Source: a virus. Taken from it: DNA of 64,000 nucleotides. The position numbers were made by a program, and so were the translations under genes. Below are positions 24,168 through 46,326 of the stretch, one piece after another (position 1 is the stretch's first letter; every line of letters starts with the position of its first letter). The notes below the pieces were generated by a model, which saw nothing but the letters and a program-made list of their open reading frames with translations, ran no database searches and was not told the origin of the DNA. The DNA is taken from positions 25,243 through 89,242 of IMG/VR virus record IMGVR_UViG_3300022592_000003; one strand, 5' to 3'.

Positions 24168-24632
24168 ATGGCTACGGCACTCATCTCAGTAGAGGGAGTA
24201 ATGAAGACCGAAGGTGGGGACCCGATTCAAGAGGGTATCCGACTCTATCGCATCCTGGCTGAACACTATCGGGTGGTAATCTGCTCCGACCTATCTGAAG
24301 ACCTAACAGAGCATTGGCTACGAGCCAATATGATTGTCGGCTATGCCGATATCTATGACACTCGCCATTTCTTTGAGGGTCAGGATTTGCGGGCCCGACA
24401 CCTAGACCTAGCTTTACAGCGGGGTCGAGTAGCTCTATTTGTAGATCCCGATGCGGATCGGTGCGCCTATGCACTCTCTAAGAACGTAACTACTCTCATG
24501 TTTGCTGAACCTAAGTTTGTCCGTACAACCCGTATGGTCAAGCCTTGGGACGAGCTGAAGGTTGAGATTGAACGTCAGCGGGATGCCCTTCTTGATGCTC
24601 ACCTCGGAAGTCAGATTAAGCGGTACGAATGA
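24168..24632 (+). CDS. HAD-fold-like protein, degenerate motif I
   Basis: LISVEGVM in place of DxDG; PIQEGI, EHWL, LFVDPD pattern. Confidence 0.55.
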   Translation: MATALISVEGVMKTEGGDPIQEGIRLYRILAEHYRVVICSDLSEDLTEHWLRANMIVGYADIYDTRHFFEGQDLRARHLDLALQRGRVALFVDPDADRCAYALSKNVTTLMFAEPKFVRTTRMVKPWDELKVEIERQRDALLDAHLGSQIKRYE

Positions 24633-26107
24633 ACATTGTCTTCATGGGCGGTGAAGTACCCTCACACAGGATCCTCCTGGCTAATGCCGGAGTTAAGCAC
24701 ATCAGCGTCAACTACTTCAGGTTGGTAAAGCGTGGTCTCCCAAAGACCAAAGACTACCTACTTAAAGAGCGGTTCCCTGATGACGTCCTCATCTATGTAG
24801 ATGGCGGCGGCCACCAGATCAATGATCTCAACATGACACAGCGGGAGCTCGAAGAGTATGCCGCTGACTACCAGGACTTCATTACTATTAATGAGGATAG
24901 AATCCACCTCGCAACCGAGTTGGATGCCAAAGCTTTGGGCCCTAACTGGATCAACCACCAGCGTCGTACCTTTTGGGAGGATTTTGGCCTAGAGCGTGCC
25001 TCTATGGTGTGGCACTCAGAAACAGGCCATACTGGTCTCTACAACCTCGCAGAGCAATATCTCAACGTTTCTATCTTGGGTGAGTCTATCGAGGACGATA
25101 CGAGCCTCTCAGCCCGTTCTAGGGCCCTTTTGAGCCAGTTTCCTGACCTGCAGTTCCATGGTGTAGCATGTGCTAAGCCAGATAATTTGAGGCAGGTACC
25201 GGTAACCACAGCTGCTACCCTTTCTTGGCTAAGTCCTATGATGAGAGGTGAGACAATTGTCTGGGATGGCACTAGACTAGTCCGCTACCAGAAGAAACAG
25301 AAAGACCAGGCTCGACCCCGCTACAAGGCGATCATCGAGAAGGCTGGGCTGGACTTTGACAAGATTATTAATGACGATAGTAACGAGGTTACCCGCCTCG
25401 CCATCTGGAGTTATCTGCAGCTAGAGAATTCATTAGACAAGCAAAGGAAGCCCATGTTATCTGATCAGAGTGATCCACTAGATAGTGCAGGTTCTGCGGA
25501 AACTAGGGGTATCAGTCCTGATAACAGAGGGTCTGAGGTGCGGAAAGATTTGACCGCCCGCAAGCCTGAAGACATGCAAACCCTGCCAGTTTTCGGGGTT
25601 ACGAATAAGACTATTTTCGAGAAAGACGTTGATGGCAGGGATGTTATCAGGGAGGCTCCGGTATTAGAGAGCACCCATACTTCCTTCCGTCAGTGCAACA
25701 CCTGCTTCGTTGCAAGCAATTGTCCGGCCTTCAAACCGAACAATTCTTGTGCCTTCAGCCTCCCGGTAGAGATTAAGACCAAGGAGCAGTTGAAGGGATT
25801 ACTCAACGCAATTATCGAAATGCAGGGCGCTAGAGTCGCTTTTGCACGTTTTGCGGAGGAATTAAACGGCGGATACCCGGATCCAAACACCGGGCAGGAG
25901 ATTGACCGACTCTTTAAGATCGTAAATGAGGTCAAGAAGTTAGAGGAGAACAAGGAGGTTCTCCGCATGACGGTGGAGCGTCAAAGCTCAGGAGGAGTCA
26001 TGTCAGCACTATTCGGAGACCGGGCCAACACCCTAAAGGAGTTGTCTGGAAATGGGTTAAGTGAAGGGGACGCCAGCAAAATAATCAAAGACCAATTAGA
26101 AGGATAG
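24629..26107 (+). CDS. TGT/DpdA-like barrel protein (degenerate) fused to a 4-Cys domain
   Basis: YVDGGG, ELD, MVWH, FHGVA, TAATLSW run parallel to DSG/LD/PVWH/HGFG/DSTSW; CNTC-x5-C-x8-C in the C-terminal part. Confidence 0.55.
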   Translation: MNIVFMGGEVPSHRILLANAGVKHISVNYFRLVKRGLPKTKDYLLKERFPDDVLIYVDGGGHQINDLNMTQRELEEYAADYQDFITINEDRIHLATELDAKALGPNWINHQRRTFWEDFGLERASMVWHSETGHTGLYNLAEQYLNVSILGESIEDDTSLSARSRALLSQFPDLQFHGVACAKPDNLRQVPVTTAATLSWLSPMMRGETIVWDGTRLVRYQKKQKDQARPRYKAIIEKAGLDFDKIINDDSNEVTRLAIWSYLQLENSLDKQRKPMLSDQSDPLDSAGSAETRGISPDNRGSEVRKDLTARKPEDMQTLPVFGVTNKTIFEKDVDGRDVIREAPVLESTHTSFRQCNTCFVASNCPAFKPNNSCAFSLPVEIKTKEQLKGLLNAIIEMQGARVAFARFAEELNGGYPDPNTGQEIDRLFKIVNEVKKLEENKEVLRMTVERQSSGGVMSALFGDRANTLKELSGNGLSEGDASKIIKDQLEG

Positions 26108-39415: not shown

Positions 39416-39766
39416 CTAGCATGCGTACTTCTCCTTTAACTTAAGGCTCTTGAGGATTTGTTCTAGCGGTAGGTTTTTCTGGCCGGTAACCAACACGCCT
39501 CTATCCTTAGGTGTAGTACCACCCTGAATAGAGTGTCGGTCATCACGATCAACAGCATCTTTCAAGCACTCTAACTTGACAGGGCAATTAGCACAGACAC
39601 GCAAGGCTGCTTCAGCCTTAGCCTTGTAGTGCATGCCTCGCTCACCATCAGCAAAGTAAAACGCCTCAACATCACAGCCACGACAATTAGCCTTGTCCTG
39701 CCATGATAGGTCAGTACTCAACAGGGTGAGGATATGATGCCCTGGTCTAGCCATAGTTTCATTCAT
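39416..39766 (-). CDS. whiB: WhiB-family transcription factor (second copy)
   Basis: WQDKANC...FY...ALRVCANCPVKLECL...IQGGTTPKDR. Confidence 0.9.
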   Translation of the reverse strand: MNETMARPGHHILTLLSTDLSWQDKANCRGCDVEAFYFADGERGMHYKAKAEAALRVCANCPVKLECLKDAVDRDDRHSIQGGTTPKDRGVLVTGQKNLPLEQILKSLKLKEKYAC

Positions 39767-41703: not shown

Positions 41704-42219
41704 GTGCCTAGAAAAGATTTCATAGGTCATAACGTAGATCCGGATGAGGCTAATAAGAAGCTCAATCTCGGTGCAGCTATGTTTGGCTTTGCTAATCCTG
41801 CTTTTAATGATGAGCCGGGGGATGAGAATACTCCTGGTCCAGAAGGCGGGGAAGATCCATCAGCTGGATATACATCAGAGATATTTGGGGATGGGTGGGA
41901 ACAACATCCTGCTCCATCAACTGGAAAGCGTCGTAGAGCTCTGTGGATCGGTTATCACAGGGGTATGAGCATGATGGTGATCATCTTTACAACCAAGACT
42001 CATAAGAAGTCCGGGGGACAGAGAAAGTTCTACGGGGATTCACAGCCATGGATCCGGTATCTAGATGTAAGTTTAGAGATGTGGGAAGAGTTAGTCGGGT
42101 ATCACTCAACTGGGGAATGGCTAAAGTTCTCAGGTGTAGAGAATAACTACTACTATCCTACAAGAGCTGCTGAGATTGATCATTTGACTCAAGAGTACAA
42201 AGAAGGACTATCTTCATAA
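41704..42219 (+). CDS. KTSC-like domain protein
   Basis: IGY...MVIIF...RYLDVSLEMWEEL...STGEWL. Confidence 0.55.
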   Translation: MPRKDFIGHNVDPDEANKKLNLGAAMFGFANPAFNDEPGDENTPGPEGGEDPSAGYTSEIFGDGWEQHPAPSTGKRRRALWIGYHRGMSMMVIIFTTKTHKKSGGQRKFYGDSQPWIRYLDVSLEMWEELVGYHSTGEWLKFSGVENNYYYPTRAAEIDHLTQEYKEGLSS

Positions 42220-42290
42220 AATAGGCTATAATTAATATAGAAGCGCCGAACGGGCTTCTTTTAACTTATATCGTCTAAGGAGATATAACT

Positions 42291-42797
42291 ATGGCACACC
42301 CATATCAAAACCCAGGTAAAGACCAATATAACGATCGCTATCCAGATTGGTCAAAACATACCAAGACAGTGGTGGTACAACCACCAGTAACGATCCAATC
42401 CCTCTTTCCCCAGTTCAATCGCTGGGCTATTGGATTCGATCCCCTCTTAGAGACCCTAAGCAACATCAGCGCCTCTGCAAAGACAAGTAGCTACCCGCCC
42501 TATAACATCTACAAGGATGAGGACAAATACGTCCTAGAACTGGCTGTAGCAGGCTTTGGCAAGGAAGATATCACTATCTCGGTAAAAGAGCTCCAGTTGA
42601 CCGTAGAAGGCCAATTAGAGGCATCTGAGGACGAACCTATCCATAAGGGAATCGCTACCAGAGACTTCAAGCAGAACTTCGCTCTAGCGGAGTATGTAGT
42701 AGTCAAGGGAGCAGAGATGAAGGATGGCATGCTCCGTATTACCTTGAAGCAGGAATTACCTGAAGAGCTACAACCCAAGATTATCAAAATCAAGTAA
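42291..42797 (+). CDS. Hsp20 small heat-shock protein
   Basis: SYPPYNI, ELAVAGF, HKGIATRDF, DGMLRITL. Confidence 0.95.
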   Translation: MAHPYQNPGKDQYNDRYPDWSKHTKTVVVQPPVTIQSLFPQFNRWAIGFDPLLETLSNISASAKTSSYPPYNIYKDEDKYVLELAVAGFGKEDITISVKELQLTVEGQLEASEDEPIHKGIATRDFKQNFALAEYVVVKGAEMKDGMLRITLKQELPEELQPKIIKIK

Positions 42798-42802
42798 TTA
42801 TC

Positions 42803-42811
42803 TGCTAGAAT
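42803..42811 (+). promoter_or_regulatory. Extended -10 promoter for the RNA cluster
   Basis: TGCTAGAAT just upstream of the first stem. Confidence 0.6.
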
Positions 42812-42819
42812 AATAATAG

Positions 42820-42901
42820 AGCTCCAGTAGGTACCGCAGTCAGGGGCCCTCTTCCTAACGAGGGCTTCGATAACCCTGTAGGCATTGGGCCTACTGGAAC
42901 T
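42820..42901 (+). ncRNA. Candidate rod-like structured RNA
   Basis: Nested stems TCCAGTAGG/CCTACTGGA, CAGGG/CCCTG, GCCCTC/GAGGGC. Confidence 0.55.
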
Positions 42902-42907
42902 ACAACT

Positions 42908-43059
42908 ATTGACCACGACTCTGAACAAGTCATCGTCAGTTCGTTACTACTGAACCTAACCTGTGAGAAGCATCATACGAAGGTGTTCAGACCGAAAGAG
43001 ATTGCTCTGCTAACTCACTAGGTAGTAACAGGCAGCAGGCTTTAACCGTGGCTGTCAAT
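42908..43059 (+). ncRNA. Candidate multi-stem RNA with complementary loops
   Basis: ATTGAC/GTCAAT, CACG/CGTG, GTTACTAC/GTAGTAAC, GTGAG/CTCAC; loops CTGAAC and GTTCAG. Confidence 0.65.
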
Positions 43060-43061
43060 CT

Positions 43062-43134
43062 TGACCTTTAGCTCAGCTGGCAGAGCACTCGACTGTTAAT
43101 CGAGTTGTCCCTGGTTCGAACCCAGGAAGGTCAG
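43062..43134 (+). tRNA. tRNA-Asn(GTT), CCA not encoded
   Basis: TGACCTT/AAGGTCA acceptor, CTCGA-CTGTTAA-TCGAG anticodon arm, CCTGG-TTCGAAC-CCAGG T arm, G discriminator. Confidence 0.95.
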
Positions 43135-43175
43135 GGGAGTAAATGGCCATCCCAGTTCGACTCTGGGTACTCCCA
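43135..43175 (+). ncRNA. tRNA-like minihelix (acceptor stem + T arm only)
   Basis: GGGAGTA-AATGGCCAT-CCCAG-TTCGACT-CTGGG-TACTCCC-A. Confidence 0.65.
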
Positions 43176-43273
43176 CGGGGGCGTAAGTGTGATTCCGTAT
43201 GAAAGATTACGATCTTTACGCCCCGCCTTATTTGTAAGTACATAGTTCCCCGCCGAAAGTTTGGAGAAGGTAA

Positions 43274-43468
43274 ATGGTAGGTGCAATATTTGGCCTTGTT
43301 GTCGGAGTGTTCGTTACTTGGGTCTGGTTGACTGAAGGGTCACCTAAGGCTCGTAAGGATAATCATCAAACAGGTGTAGTCCAGGTTCGTTGCTCACATT
43401 GTGGACAGATGAACTGGGTTAGCTATAACAATGTCCGTGTTGATACTAAATGCCCTAAGTGTGCATAA
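43274..43468 (+). CDS. TM + Zn-ribbon protein
   Basis: N-terminal TM; CSHC...CPKC. Confidence 0.65.
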   Translation: MVGAIFGLVVGVFVTWVWLTEGSPKARKDNHQTGVVQVRCSHCGQMNWVSYNNVRVDTKCPKCA

Positions 43469-43635
43469 TGCCTAAATACGACTATAAGTGTGAGACCTGT
43501 AATTCAACTATTGAAGTTACCCGCTCTTTTGATGAAGAGGGTTCTCCGCTGTGCACCACCTGTAATTCCACTATGATTAGGCAATGGAACGCCACACCGG
43601 CGATTTTCCGTGGTGGAGGCTGGGGAGGTAAGTAA
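43468..43635 (+). CDS. FmdB-like Zn-ribbon protein (not in ORF track)
   Basis: MPKYDYKCETC...CTTC...IFRGGGW. Confidence 0.85.
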   Translation: MPKYDYKCETCNSTIEVTRSFDEEGSPLCTTCNSTMIRQWNATPAIFRGGGWGGK

Positions 43636-44087: not shown

Positions 44088-44654
44088 ATGACAACGATCG
44101 CTGCAATCCAAGGTGACGGCTGGGTAGTAATGGGTGGAGACACTCAATCTACTGTGGCTGAGTATAAGCGCCTAGTTATGTCTAACGACAAGGTAATTAA
44201 CAACAATGGCATTCTCATTGCCGGTTGTGGTATGGGTCGTGGCATGGATCTATTGCAGAAGGCTTGGAAGGCTCCAAAGCCCCGCCCAAATCAGAGCATC
44301 GCTCAACTAGATGCGTGGATGGCGAAAACTTTTATTCCCGGAATGCGTAAGCTCTTTATTGAAGGTGGCTACGACATGAAGGATGACGGCGACTACGCCC
44401 AGCACGAAGGTGCATTTATCGTAGCTGTCCAGGGAGTTGTCTTCTATATTGACGACGACTATTCATTTGACCGTGAGGCTCGTGGAATTACTGCCTCAGG
44501 TAGCGGCGGCGACTTTGCCACAGGTTCTTTATATGGCAAGGATCTCTCAACCATTGATGCAGCCTGTGACGCTATGAGGACCGCTATTGATGCCGCTAGG
44601 GCATATGACGTATATTCTGGTGGAGAGACTCGGATTTACGTACAAGAAGCGTAA
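44088..44654 (+). CDS. Ntn-hydrolase, proteasome-beta/HslV-like peptidase
   Basis: N-terminal MTTI, GDTQ, K, SGSGGDFA, DVYSGG. Confidence 0.85.
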   Translation: MTTIAAIQGDGWVVMGGDTQSTVAEYKRLVMSNDKVINNNGILIAGCGMGRGMDLLQKAWKAPKPRPNQSIAQLDAWMAKTFIPGMRKLFIEGGYDMKDDGDYAQHEGAFIVAVQGVVFYIDDDYSFDREARGITASGSGGDFATGSLYGKDLSTIDAACDAMRTAIDAARAYDVYSGGETRIYVQEA

Positions 44655-45340: not shown

Positions 45341-45496
45341 ATGAAACTAGAAATCAAATGCGTTAAGTGCAATGACACAGAGCAATCAACAGACGTTCTA
45401 AAAGGCTTAAAGGCTTTTTACAACCCGTGTGAAGACTGTGGTTCTAAGCAAGAAGTTAAGTGGGTTGAGTTCACACAGAAAACAGGTAACAAGTAA
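45341..45496 (+). CDS. Zn-ribbon peptide (not in ORF track)
   Basis: CVKC...CEDC; TAATG coupling. Confidence 0.55.
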   Translation: MKLEIKCVKCNDTEQSTDVLKGLKAFYNPCEDCGSKQEVKWVEFTQKTGNK

Positions 45497-46326
45497 TGAC
45501 TTATCCAGTAGATGATGCAGGAAATCCACAAGTTGACTTTGTATGGGGCCATATGCCTCTTCAGCCAAACGATCAGCGTGGTGCTTATGACAACGAAGGT
45601 AACCTTTCAACCAATAAGCCACAGAACAAGTACTGGACTGTTTCTAAGCCAGTAGGAAGTGCAAACCTTTCTACCGGTTGGACTGAAATTCCTTTTAATA
45701 CCGGTGATGGTGGAAACACTCGTTATCAGACAATTACATGGGATAGCCATGAAATCGCTACCGGCACATGGGAAAACTACCCAGGCTTTGCTACAGGTGG
45801 TGTTAATGACGACCTTATCCCTAACGCAACAGTACCTAACGTTGTTGGCCTAGGACTTTCATTTGCCTCTTCTGCACTTAATGCAGTAGGTCTTGGCCTT
45901 GGTAATGTTACTAACCACGTTGAGAGTGATAACCCTGCTCTTGATGGGGTTGTTTACTCACAATCAGTTCCTGCGGGAACTATCGTAAACCAAGGAGATA
46001 CTGTAGACCTAGTTCAAAACCAGTATGTAGTTCCAGTTAACCACATTGCCGGGTTCAGCACTACAAACCTTCCATCCGGATGGACACTTGGCGATAACGA
46101 AATTGTTATGTACATCACCGGTCGTACAATCGTACCGAGTGGTTCAGCAATTACTGTAACTGGAAATACAAATGCAACGTTGAACCAAAACTTCAATGTT
46201 ATTCAAGTTGCAAATGATGACCACTACAACACTGGTGGAACCGCTGTAAAACTACACGGTGCAGATGTACCATTCATTAACCCAAATACCAACACTGTTA
46301 CAGACGCTGTTTGGGTAAACCTTTAA
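45496..46326 (+). CDS. Paralog B with PASTA domain
   Basis: VPNVVGL...GVVYSQSVPAGTIV..GDTVDL. Confidence 0.8.
   Translation: MTYPVDDAGNPQVDFVWGHMPLQPNDQRGAYDNEGNLSTNKPQNKYWTVSKPVGSANLSTGWTEIPFNTGDGGNTRYQTITWDSHEIATGTWENYPGFATGGVNDDLIPNATVPNVVGLGLSFASSALNAVGLGLGNVTNHVESDNPALDGVVYSQSVPAGTIVNQGDTVDLVQNQYVVPVNHIAGFSTTNLPSGWTLGDNEIVMYITGRTIVPSGSAITVTGNTNATLNQNFNVIQVANDDHYNTGGTAVKLHGADVPFINPNTNTVTDAVWVNL

Follow-up and report, generated by a model that had tools for sequence, protein, structure and literature searches.

The DNA analyzed here, referred to as the window, is a stretch of 64,000 nucleotides from the 89-kb IMG/VR virus record IMGVR_UViG_3300022592_000003 (positions 25,243 to 89,242 of that record). 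It encodes a family A DNA polymerase, a ribonucleotide reductase, a Tgt/DpdA-like protein (24629-26107, plus strand), a terminase and a portal protein. Furthermore, genes for a WhiB protein (39419-39766, minus strand; E 1.7e-15), a proteasome-subunit-like protein (44088-44654, plus strand) and a PASTA-domain protein (45496-46326, plus strand) were identified, which, together with the Tgt/DpdA-like protein, may be taken as markers of actinobacterial phages, 7-deazaguanine modification of the DNA being a possibility. Between the terminase and its counterpart in Streptomyces phage BRock, the identity amounts to 52.8%. The WhiB protein, the PASTA-domain protein and the BRock-like terminase therefore suggest that the host is probably a freshwater actinobacterium.

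Between an hsp20 gene upstream (42291-42797; Pfam HSP20, E 1.8e-15) and a tRNA-Asn(GTT) gene downstream, the plus strand at 42908-43060 contains an RNA that, as judged by sequence comparison, belongs to a conserved, structured family from uncultured freshwater phages. The copy is about 150 nt long and is the only one within the window. A short 3' tail (43057-43061, plus strand) leads to the tRNA gene, which was placed at 43062-43134 by the Rfam tRNA model (66.1 bits) and at 43061-43135 by ARAGORN, also on the plus strand; the match to the covariance model of the family, R1, ends at 43060. Maturation of the 5' end of tRNA-Asn would thus free the 3' end of the RNA. The RNA itself does not belong to the tRNAs, with neither an ARAGORN nor an Rfam RF00005 call within 42908-43060, and no tRNA or tmRNA was called inside the element in 17 relatives and the window.

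On the 5' side, the window copy has no upstream tRNA and no recognizable promoter. A scan of 42000-43500 called no terminator, and its two promoter-like sites do not exceed chance expectation. The position occupied by a tRNA in most relatives is taken here by a strong 76-nt hairpin (42823-42898, plus strand; minimum free energy z = -2.97, none of 200 shuffled sequences being as good), which was rejected as a tRNA on account of lacking an ARAGORN call. In related contigs, a C-to-T change at 42847 gives a G-U pair, so that the pairing of the hairpin is kept, and the hairpin may be part of the RNA's own precursor.

Two further features follow the tRNA on the plus strand. Directly after the discriminator of tRNA-Asn, a tRNA-like minihelix of 41 nt was observed (43135-43175), in which an acceptor-type stem of 7 bp and a linker of 9 nt precede a T-arm (loop TTCGACT), with A as the next base. 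It is succeeded by a long hairpin (43178-43234) with a G+C-rich base of 9 bp (43178-86/43216-24) and a T-rich tail. This hairpin looks like the end of an hsp20-RNA-tRNA unit, and was missed by the simple terminator scan because its loop is too long.

Relatives of the RNA in viral and metagenomic contigs

Comparison with Rfam 15 (4227 models) at gathering scores returned only two tRNAs for the whole window. Searching 42700-43350 at E <= 10 added to the tRNA nothing except a chance miRNA match on the opposite strand within hsp20, and for two divergent members of the family (L120 and L200) the same threshold yielded only snoRNA-type noise (E 1.7-8.8). The family had likewise not been recognized in the first-pass annotation, and it has no Rfam 15 match even under these permissive settings. 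When 42700-43400 was compared with 50,697 phage records by blastn, nothing but the tRNA was matched, and R1 found no copy in the closest cultured phages by terminase, namely the Streptomyces phages BRock and LuckySocke and the Bacillus phage BCD7.

Among 80 loci fetched via Hsp20, blastn detected a stretch of 85% identity in two only (L017 and L018), in which the RNA lies between tRNA-Asn and tRNA-Met; both already exhibit compensatory changes in the first hairpin and in the long arm. R1 gave no match in the remaining 78 loci. Since only these two loci possess the RNA near hsp20, its linkage to this gene is considered incidental.

Relatives were collected by exact-pattern scans. The pattern of scan 1 comprised only the two loops described below and matched 27 stretches in viral contigs, 17 of which were clear homologs by reading, while the other ten, which proved to be unrelated and for the most part coding, were excluded. 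Scan 2 was confined to two core motifs and left both loops unconstrained; it recovered 47 viral stretches, 41 metagenome stretches and a single one in the genomes of 185,579 species. In scan 3, the junction strand and the P5 stem were unconstrained, and 20 new loci were obtained: eight represent a more divergent subgroup of low GC content, and the remaining 12, again unrelated and mostly coding, were discarded. Model R1 was built from 36 MAFFT-aligned sequences trimmed at the tRNA borders.

In total, R1 identified 99 copies among the viral and metagenome contigs, never more than a single one per locus (99 loci), with scores between 97 and 188 bits; some of the metagenome loci duplicate contigs of IMG/VR, and the 99 matches correspond to 78 distinct contexts and 71 distinct sequences. 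Three copies are truncated (L126, L147 and L151), the first of them being omitted from alignment A2. The length of the RNA ranges from 149 to 173 nt. Within cellular genomes (one per species, 185,579 species, scanned with the exact core), the sole match (L144) lies on a 10.7-kb contig of a metagenome-assembled genome labeled uncultured Methylococcus, which is probably a phage fragment that was mis-binned. WhiB is encountered repeatedly in the regions that flank the RNA in the family loci. Clustering of the proteins flanking the 99 loci and the window RNA gave no consistently co-occurring or RNA-related protein, the best cluster covering 30 loci.

The covarying fold and its loop-loop helix

Folded alone (152 nt), the window copy reached a minimum free energy of -40 kcal/mol (z = -1.16), and 22 of 200 shuffled sequences folded as well. 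The fold of the single sequence is therefore no evidence in itself, and the evidence is supplied by the relatives. RNAalifold, run independently on the MAFFT alignment of 36 sequences, predicted 35 pairs, 22 of them with double changes. The final alignment, which was fitted to the structure of the model and includes the loop-loop helix, contains 71 distinct sequences and 41 pairs, of which 26 show changes on both sides, and 99.4% of its 2839 cells are paired, compared to 32.9-42.7% in slid controls. Covariation among collected homologs, which the first-pass annotation had proposed as a check, was strong: the score amounted to 0.422 versus 0.146 for shuffled alignments, and none of 500 shuffles reached 0.422. 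G-U pairs are frequent (for example GU in 70 sequences at columns 96/107 and UG in 36 at columns 47/124) and would be C-A mismatches on the opposite strand; the RNA strand is therefore the plus strand.

The predicted structure is organized into three domains, namely a 5' hairpin, a long central arm ending in a three-way junction, and a 3' hairpin of variable length. The 5' arm (42908-42940, plus strand) consists of a basal stem, an internal loop and an apical stem, P2 (42917-20/42928-31), which is capped by L2, a loop of 7 nt with the sequence CTGAACA (42921-27). The hairpin GACT-CTGAACA-AGTC (42917-42931), which had been noticed from the window alone, is thus present, and it is kept with compensatory changes in the 71 distinct sequences: seven of the eight model pairs of P2 are compensatory, and 98.3% of the cells are paired. 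The basal stem ATTGAC/GTCAGT (42908-13/42935-40) is restricted to the subtype of the window, and its partner strands covary in the closest members of the family, L086 and L096 having ACTAAC/GTTAGT and L184 having AAATTCT/AGAATTT. A general basal stem of the majority subtype (P1, CTC/GAG) was considered and dropped, being absent in a subgroup with AAAGAT at this place.

The central domain (42943-43029, plus strand) begins with P3, GTTACTAC/GTAGTAAC (42943-50/43022-29), followed by an asymmetric internal loop (42951-61 versus 43019-21), P4, GTGAG/CTCAC (42963-67/43014-18), and P4b, GC/GC (42970-71/43009-10), which is located next to the three-way junction. Both the long arm and its inner stem GTGAG/CTCAC had been read from the single sequence, and both are retained with compensatory changes across the family, four of the six model pairs of P3 and all four of P4 being doubly changed. 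In the helices of this domain, between 97.8% and 100% of the cells are paired. The hairpin GGT-GTTCAG-ACC (P5; stem GGT/ACC, 42982-42993, plus strand) with its 6-nt loop L5, GTTCAG (42985-90), was also described previously; it is present and conserved but does not simply cap the arm, as had been assumed, representing instead one branch of the three-way junction beside GAG-ATTG-CTC (42998-43007). Its third pair varies (UA 26, CG 21, GC 19 and UG 5), and its second pair is GC in 65 and UA in 6 sequences.

The other branch, P6, is a small hairpin, (A)GAG-ATTG-CTC(T) (42997-43008, plus strand), which was predicted by RNAalifold and is stacked on P4b. P6 is invariant and hence shows no covariation; it was unconstrained only in scan 1, where it is kept in all 17 true matches, and was set by the pattern in scans 2 and 3. 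The 10-nt junction strand J4/5, ATCATACGAA (42972-42981, plus strand), is invariant in the family as well, the invariance of several motifs being in part imposed by the search patterns: J4/5 was set by the pattern in scan 2, and is identical in 17 of 17 true matches of scan 1 and 8 of 8 new matches of scan 3, in both of which it was unconstrained.

The 3' hairpin P7 (43031-43056, plus strand) is formed by GGCAGC/GCTGTC, the pair A43037-T43049 and GG/CC (43038-39/43046-47), with single-base bulges at 43048 and 43050 and a loop at 43040-45. Double changes occur at five of the six basal and both inner pairs, and relatives contain a distal insertion of about 20 nt. An all-against-all scan of the alignment columns revealed one extra pair, also in P7 (columns 140/179; AT 36, GC 23, GT 10; 100% paired), and no further tertiary pairs.

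Three other helices of the first-pass annotation did not withstand the comparison. In alignment A5, the proposed closing stems ATTGAC/GTCAAT and CACG/CGTG are paired in only 11.3% and 65.1% of the cells, respectively, and the suggested pairing of CTGCT with AGCAG in 80.6%, with covariation no greater than in shuffles. Taken together, the three gave 48.7% paired cells versus a shuffled mean of 49.6%, with 497 of 500 shuffles reaching this value (A5). The strand ATTGAC pairs locally with GTCAGT (42935-40), as it also does in the minimum-energy fold of the window copy, where the 3' part likewise folds into its own hairpin, and GCTGTC (43051-56) is the 3' half of the separate covarying hairpin that it forms with GGCAGC (43031-36).

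The complementarity between the loops CTGAAC and GTTCAG, by contrast, was upheld. It is exact, and L2 and L5 form a helix of 6 bp, in which five pairs are invariant and the end pair covaries between C-G (65 distinct sequences), U-A (4) and U-G (1) without being broken in any sequence. L2 reads CTGAACA in 65 and CTGAATA in five of 70 distinct sequences, neither scan 2 nor the scan of metagenomes having constrained either loop. The U-A pair occurs in at least three independent lineages, each with a C-G nearest neighbor: L135 next to L131 (99.4% identity), L164 next to L175 (84%), and the clade of L188 and L196 next to L203 (88%). Furthermore, the sequence with U-G (L134) is 99.4% identical to one with C-G (L149). 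Three independent double substitutions and a wobble intermediate are therefore good evidence that the bases of L2 and L5 pair.

This covariation fits pairing within a molecule and between molecules equally. In the subtype of the window, the 5' arm is longer (about 13 bp with the internal loop) and its linker to P3 measures 2-4 nt, whereas in the majority subtype the arm is shorter and the linker extends over 8-9 nt. Because the two lengths vary reciprocally, as for a contact that spans a fixed distance, an intramolecular kiss is favored, in which the L2-L5 helix would tie together the tips of two roughly parallel arms. Alternatively, the loops could pair between molecules and give rise to dimers, closed rings or cages. 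We regard this as unlikely, albeit as the most serious of the competing explanations. The loops are complementary to each other and not to themselves, and mutually complementary loops lead to head-to-tail chains or rings in the packaging RNA (pRNA) of phage phi29. ROOL and GOLLD, which are phage RNAs found near tRNA islands, are described as forming homo-oligomeric cages in PMC12286853, and the covariation of the end pair is as compatible with such an assembly as with a contact in cis. On the other hand, the opposite changes in arm and linker length between the subtypes are what a contact in cis would produce, and arms of similar length joined by a short linker would place the loops within reach of each other in one molecule.

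The letters of the two loops allow for another explanation, namely that the loop-loop helix mimics a codon-anticodon helix and that the RNA binds or imitates anticodon arms, serving, for example, as a decoy for an anticodon nuclease of the host or as a tRNA sensor or sponge. L2 is shaped like an anticodon loop (C-U-GAA-C-A): it comprises 7 nt, its second base is U, and the stem beneath it is closed by U-A. It contains the Asn codon AAC/AAU, which is retained in its sole variant, CTGAATA, while GUU and the Phe codon UUC are included in L5. In addition, the RNA would be co-expressed with tRNAs, and phage tRNA arrays serve to evade defenses that target tRNAs. However, the equivalent of position 37 is occupied by a pyrimidine, as is seldom the case in tRNAs, the stem comprises 7-8 bp and not 5, and no nuclease partner is known. 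Moreover, the likeness depends on six letters and may be due to chance. We give this explanation little credence. The tRNA content of the arrays, with tRNA-Asn in 47 and tRNA-Phe in two of 90 loci, argues neither for nor against it. The idea that the RNA replaces tRNA-Phe was rejected as well; it gave no signal, and many other tRNAs are rare as well.

A module in tRNA arrays

The position of the RNA relative to tRNA genes is conserved. Of 74 assessable contexts on either side (78 distinct contexts in total), 68 have a tRNA ending 0-1 nt before the RNA match, and 65 have one that begins at a distance of -1 to 2 nt behind the match; in 58 of 70 assessable contexts tRNAs adjoin on both sides, the RNA filling the whole gap between them. 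The first-pass annotation had placed the end of the RNA immediately upstream of tRNA-Asn; the distance is 1-2 nt, and the tRNA-adjoining position was confirmed in the family. The neighbors vary, with 10 different tRNA species upstream and 11 downstream. Being flanked by tRNAs of such varied identity, the RNA is therefore a module in a tRNA slot, and, since it fills the gap between tRNA genes, it is probably cut out by the enzymes that process tRNA ends. The RNA would be transcribed on the plus strand together with the tRNAs, its 3' end would be generated when RNase P cuts at the 5' end of the downstream tRNA, and its 5' end when the upstream tRNA is matured at the 3' side by RNase Z or an equivalent trimming activity. 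In this way, the tRNA-maturing enzymes would free a discrete RNA and no dedicated nuclease would be required.

It is also conceivable that the RNA takes part in the cutting of the tRNA precursor as a small self-cleaving ribozyme. In a general way, it resembles small nucleolytic ribozymes in size, in its tertiary loop-loop contact, in having invariant unpaired strands at a three-way junction and in being located where processing takes place, yet no ribozyme family of Rfam 15 was matched at E <= 10, the junction strands presumably do not fit the hammerhead core, and the neighboring tRNAs already provide sites for RNase P and RNase Z. We therefore consider a ribozyme highly improbable.

The upstream tRNA call is absent in six of the 74 contexts, including the window. 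In two of the loci (L086 and L096), a terminator-like hairpin is followed by an extended -10-like motif (TGC-TACAGT or TGC-TAGAGT), which lies 6 nt upstream of where the RNA begins, and in a few phages the RNA would thus be provided with its own promoter instead of an upstream tRNA. A second conserved block, itself followed by a terminator-like hairpin, was observed about 60-170 nt upstream of the RNA in the same two loci and may represent a further small RNA that is driven by a promoter of its own. In two other loci (L117 and L122), the T-arm-like sequences GGGTTCAAATCCC and CGGGTTCGATTCCCG end right before the RNA, and ARAGORN called no tRNA in the approximately 80 nt upstream. These stretches may belong to unusual or intron-bearing tRNAs.

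Evidence for transcription was provided by a freshwater metatranscriptome, in which one contig of 306 nt covers 42815-43121 with eight differences and one gap (depth 4.1). It is a weak sign, because the contig bridges the RNA-tRNA junction and shows no ends, so that it represents at best a precursor and may also stem from carried-over DNA. DNA contigs identical to the window were detected in pond metagenomes of two further studies (X5 and X6), and a freshwater metagenome (X11) yielded a variant whose contigs each differ from the window at 7-8 positions and by one gap. In the pond metagenomes (X5 and X6), the summed contig depth at 42910-43140 was 4-9 times that of the flanks. The short contigs of these samples carry other variants of the family, indicating that several RNA-bearing phages coexist in one sample.

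The complete filling of the inter-tRNA gap in 58 of 70 contexts, together with the fact that the sole contig from an RNA library spans both the RNA and a tRNA, would also be expected if the RNA were a structured spacer acting in cis within the tRNA precursor, which prevents misfolding of the tRNAs or guides and times their processing and is degraded afterwards. Nevertheless, other gaps between tRNAs in these arrays mostly measure 0-15 nt, so that no spacer is needed, and only a single copy is present per array. The sequence is kept beside all 10 upstream and 11 downstream tRNA species, and the invariant junction strands and the tertiary loop-loop helix exceed what a spacer needs. Finally, the candidate promoter in L086 and L096 and the six contexts lacking an upstream tRNA do not agree with a function tied to the spacing of tRNAs. 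Consequently, a mere spacer appears improbable.

On balance, the evidence favors a gene in its own right, encoding a compact structured RNA of about 150 nt without coding function, which would be co-transcribed with tRNAs, held together by a loop-loop contact in cis and released by tRNA-processing enzymes. The released RNA would then act in trans during infection, its most likely target being the tRNA and translation machinery with which it is co-expressed.

Relation to known phage RNAs

The closest analogs of the RNA are rnaC and rnaD of phage T4, also referred to as species 1 and species 2 stable RNAs. With 139 and 119 nt, they share the size class of the family, and they likewise reside in a tRNA cluster, where rnaD follows tRNA-Arg by 1 nt and rnaC follows rnaD by 6 nt. 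For the T4 RNAs as for the present family, release by tRNA-processing enzymes is presumed. We know of no loop-loop helix in rnaC or rnaD. Moreover, T4 infects enterobacteria, whereas the hosts of the family are probably actinobacteria, and R1, applied to the tRNA region of T4 with filters off, found nothing at rnaC or rnaD, its best match lying elsewhere (8.4 bits, E 0.24). Both genes are annotated as 'small, stable RNA' in the T4 record (NC_000866).

The pRNA of phi29 (RF00044) resembles the family in its phage origin and similar size, and in combining a three-way junction with a pair of mutually complementary loops. Its loops pair between molecules, and pRNA is part of the packaging motor and encoded at the genome end, unlike the family RNA, which sits in tRNA arrays; the pRNA model of Rfam 15 did not match the window RNA. 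The self-association of pRNA is the subject of PMC4201828. GOLLD and ROOL had been named as a precedent in the first-pass annotation. This precedent holds for the context, these being structured RNAs of phages and prophages that often lie beside tRNA islands, whose function is unexplained and which form large homo-oligomeric cages (PMC12286853). It does not extend to size or homology: according to the same source, GOLLD and ROOL are about 4-6 times larger than the family RNA (149-173 nt), and their Rfam models matched neither the window RNA nor L120 and L200.

In the literature searched, no paper describing the RNA family was found, the supplementary lists of PMC10690425 lying outside this search. 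That publication presents a catalog of 8,495 candidate structured RNAs from IMG/VR, which may contain the family. The words 'phage', 'kissing' and 'tRNA array' do not occur in the preprint 10.64898/2026.10.21.760802. The family is accordingly regarded as new and uncatalogued, and its covarying fold and loop-loop helix as well supported.

A more far-reaching possibility, to which we assign a rather low probability, is that the kiss is intermolecular and builds a small RNA-only ring or cage, i.e., a miniature ROOL or GOLLD, or that it is a codon-anticodon mimic that opens to capture the anticodon arm of a tRNA. In either case, tRNA arrays would carry a new tRNA-linked RNA device and not an inert spacer, and a ring or cage would be built from a 150-nt unit that is released ready-made from tRNA precursors.

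Since T4, the tRNA clusters of phages have been known to hold small stable RNAs that are unexplained, and the family adds a case from a quite different phage group, with a strength given by about 100 copies, a covarying fold and a loop-loop helix featuring three independent compensatory switches. It indicates that such RNAs act as modules in tRNA slots, moving between neighbors. Owing to its small size, the RNA lends itself to direct structural and biochemical studies, which makes it tractable to ask what the RNAs of tRNA arrays do and whether small RNAs of phages assemble with themselves in the manner of ROOL and GOLLD, and the covariance model enables the annotation of a recurrent "empty" gap in the genomes of freshwater phages.
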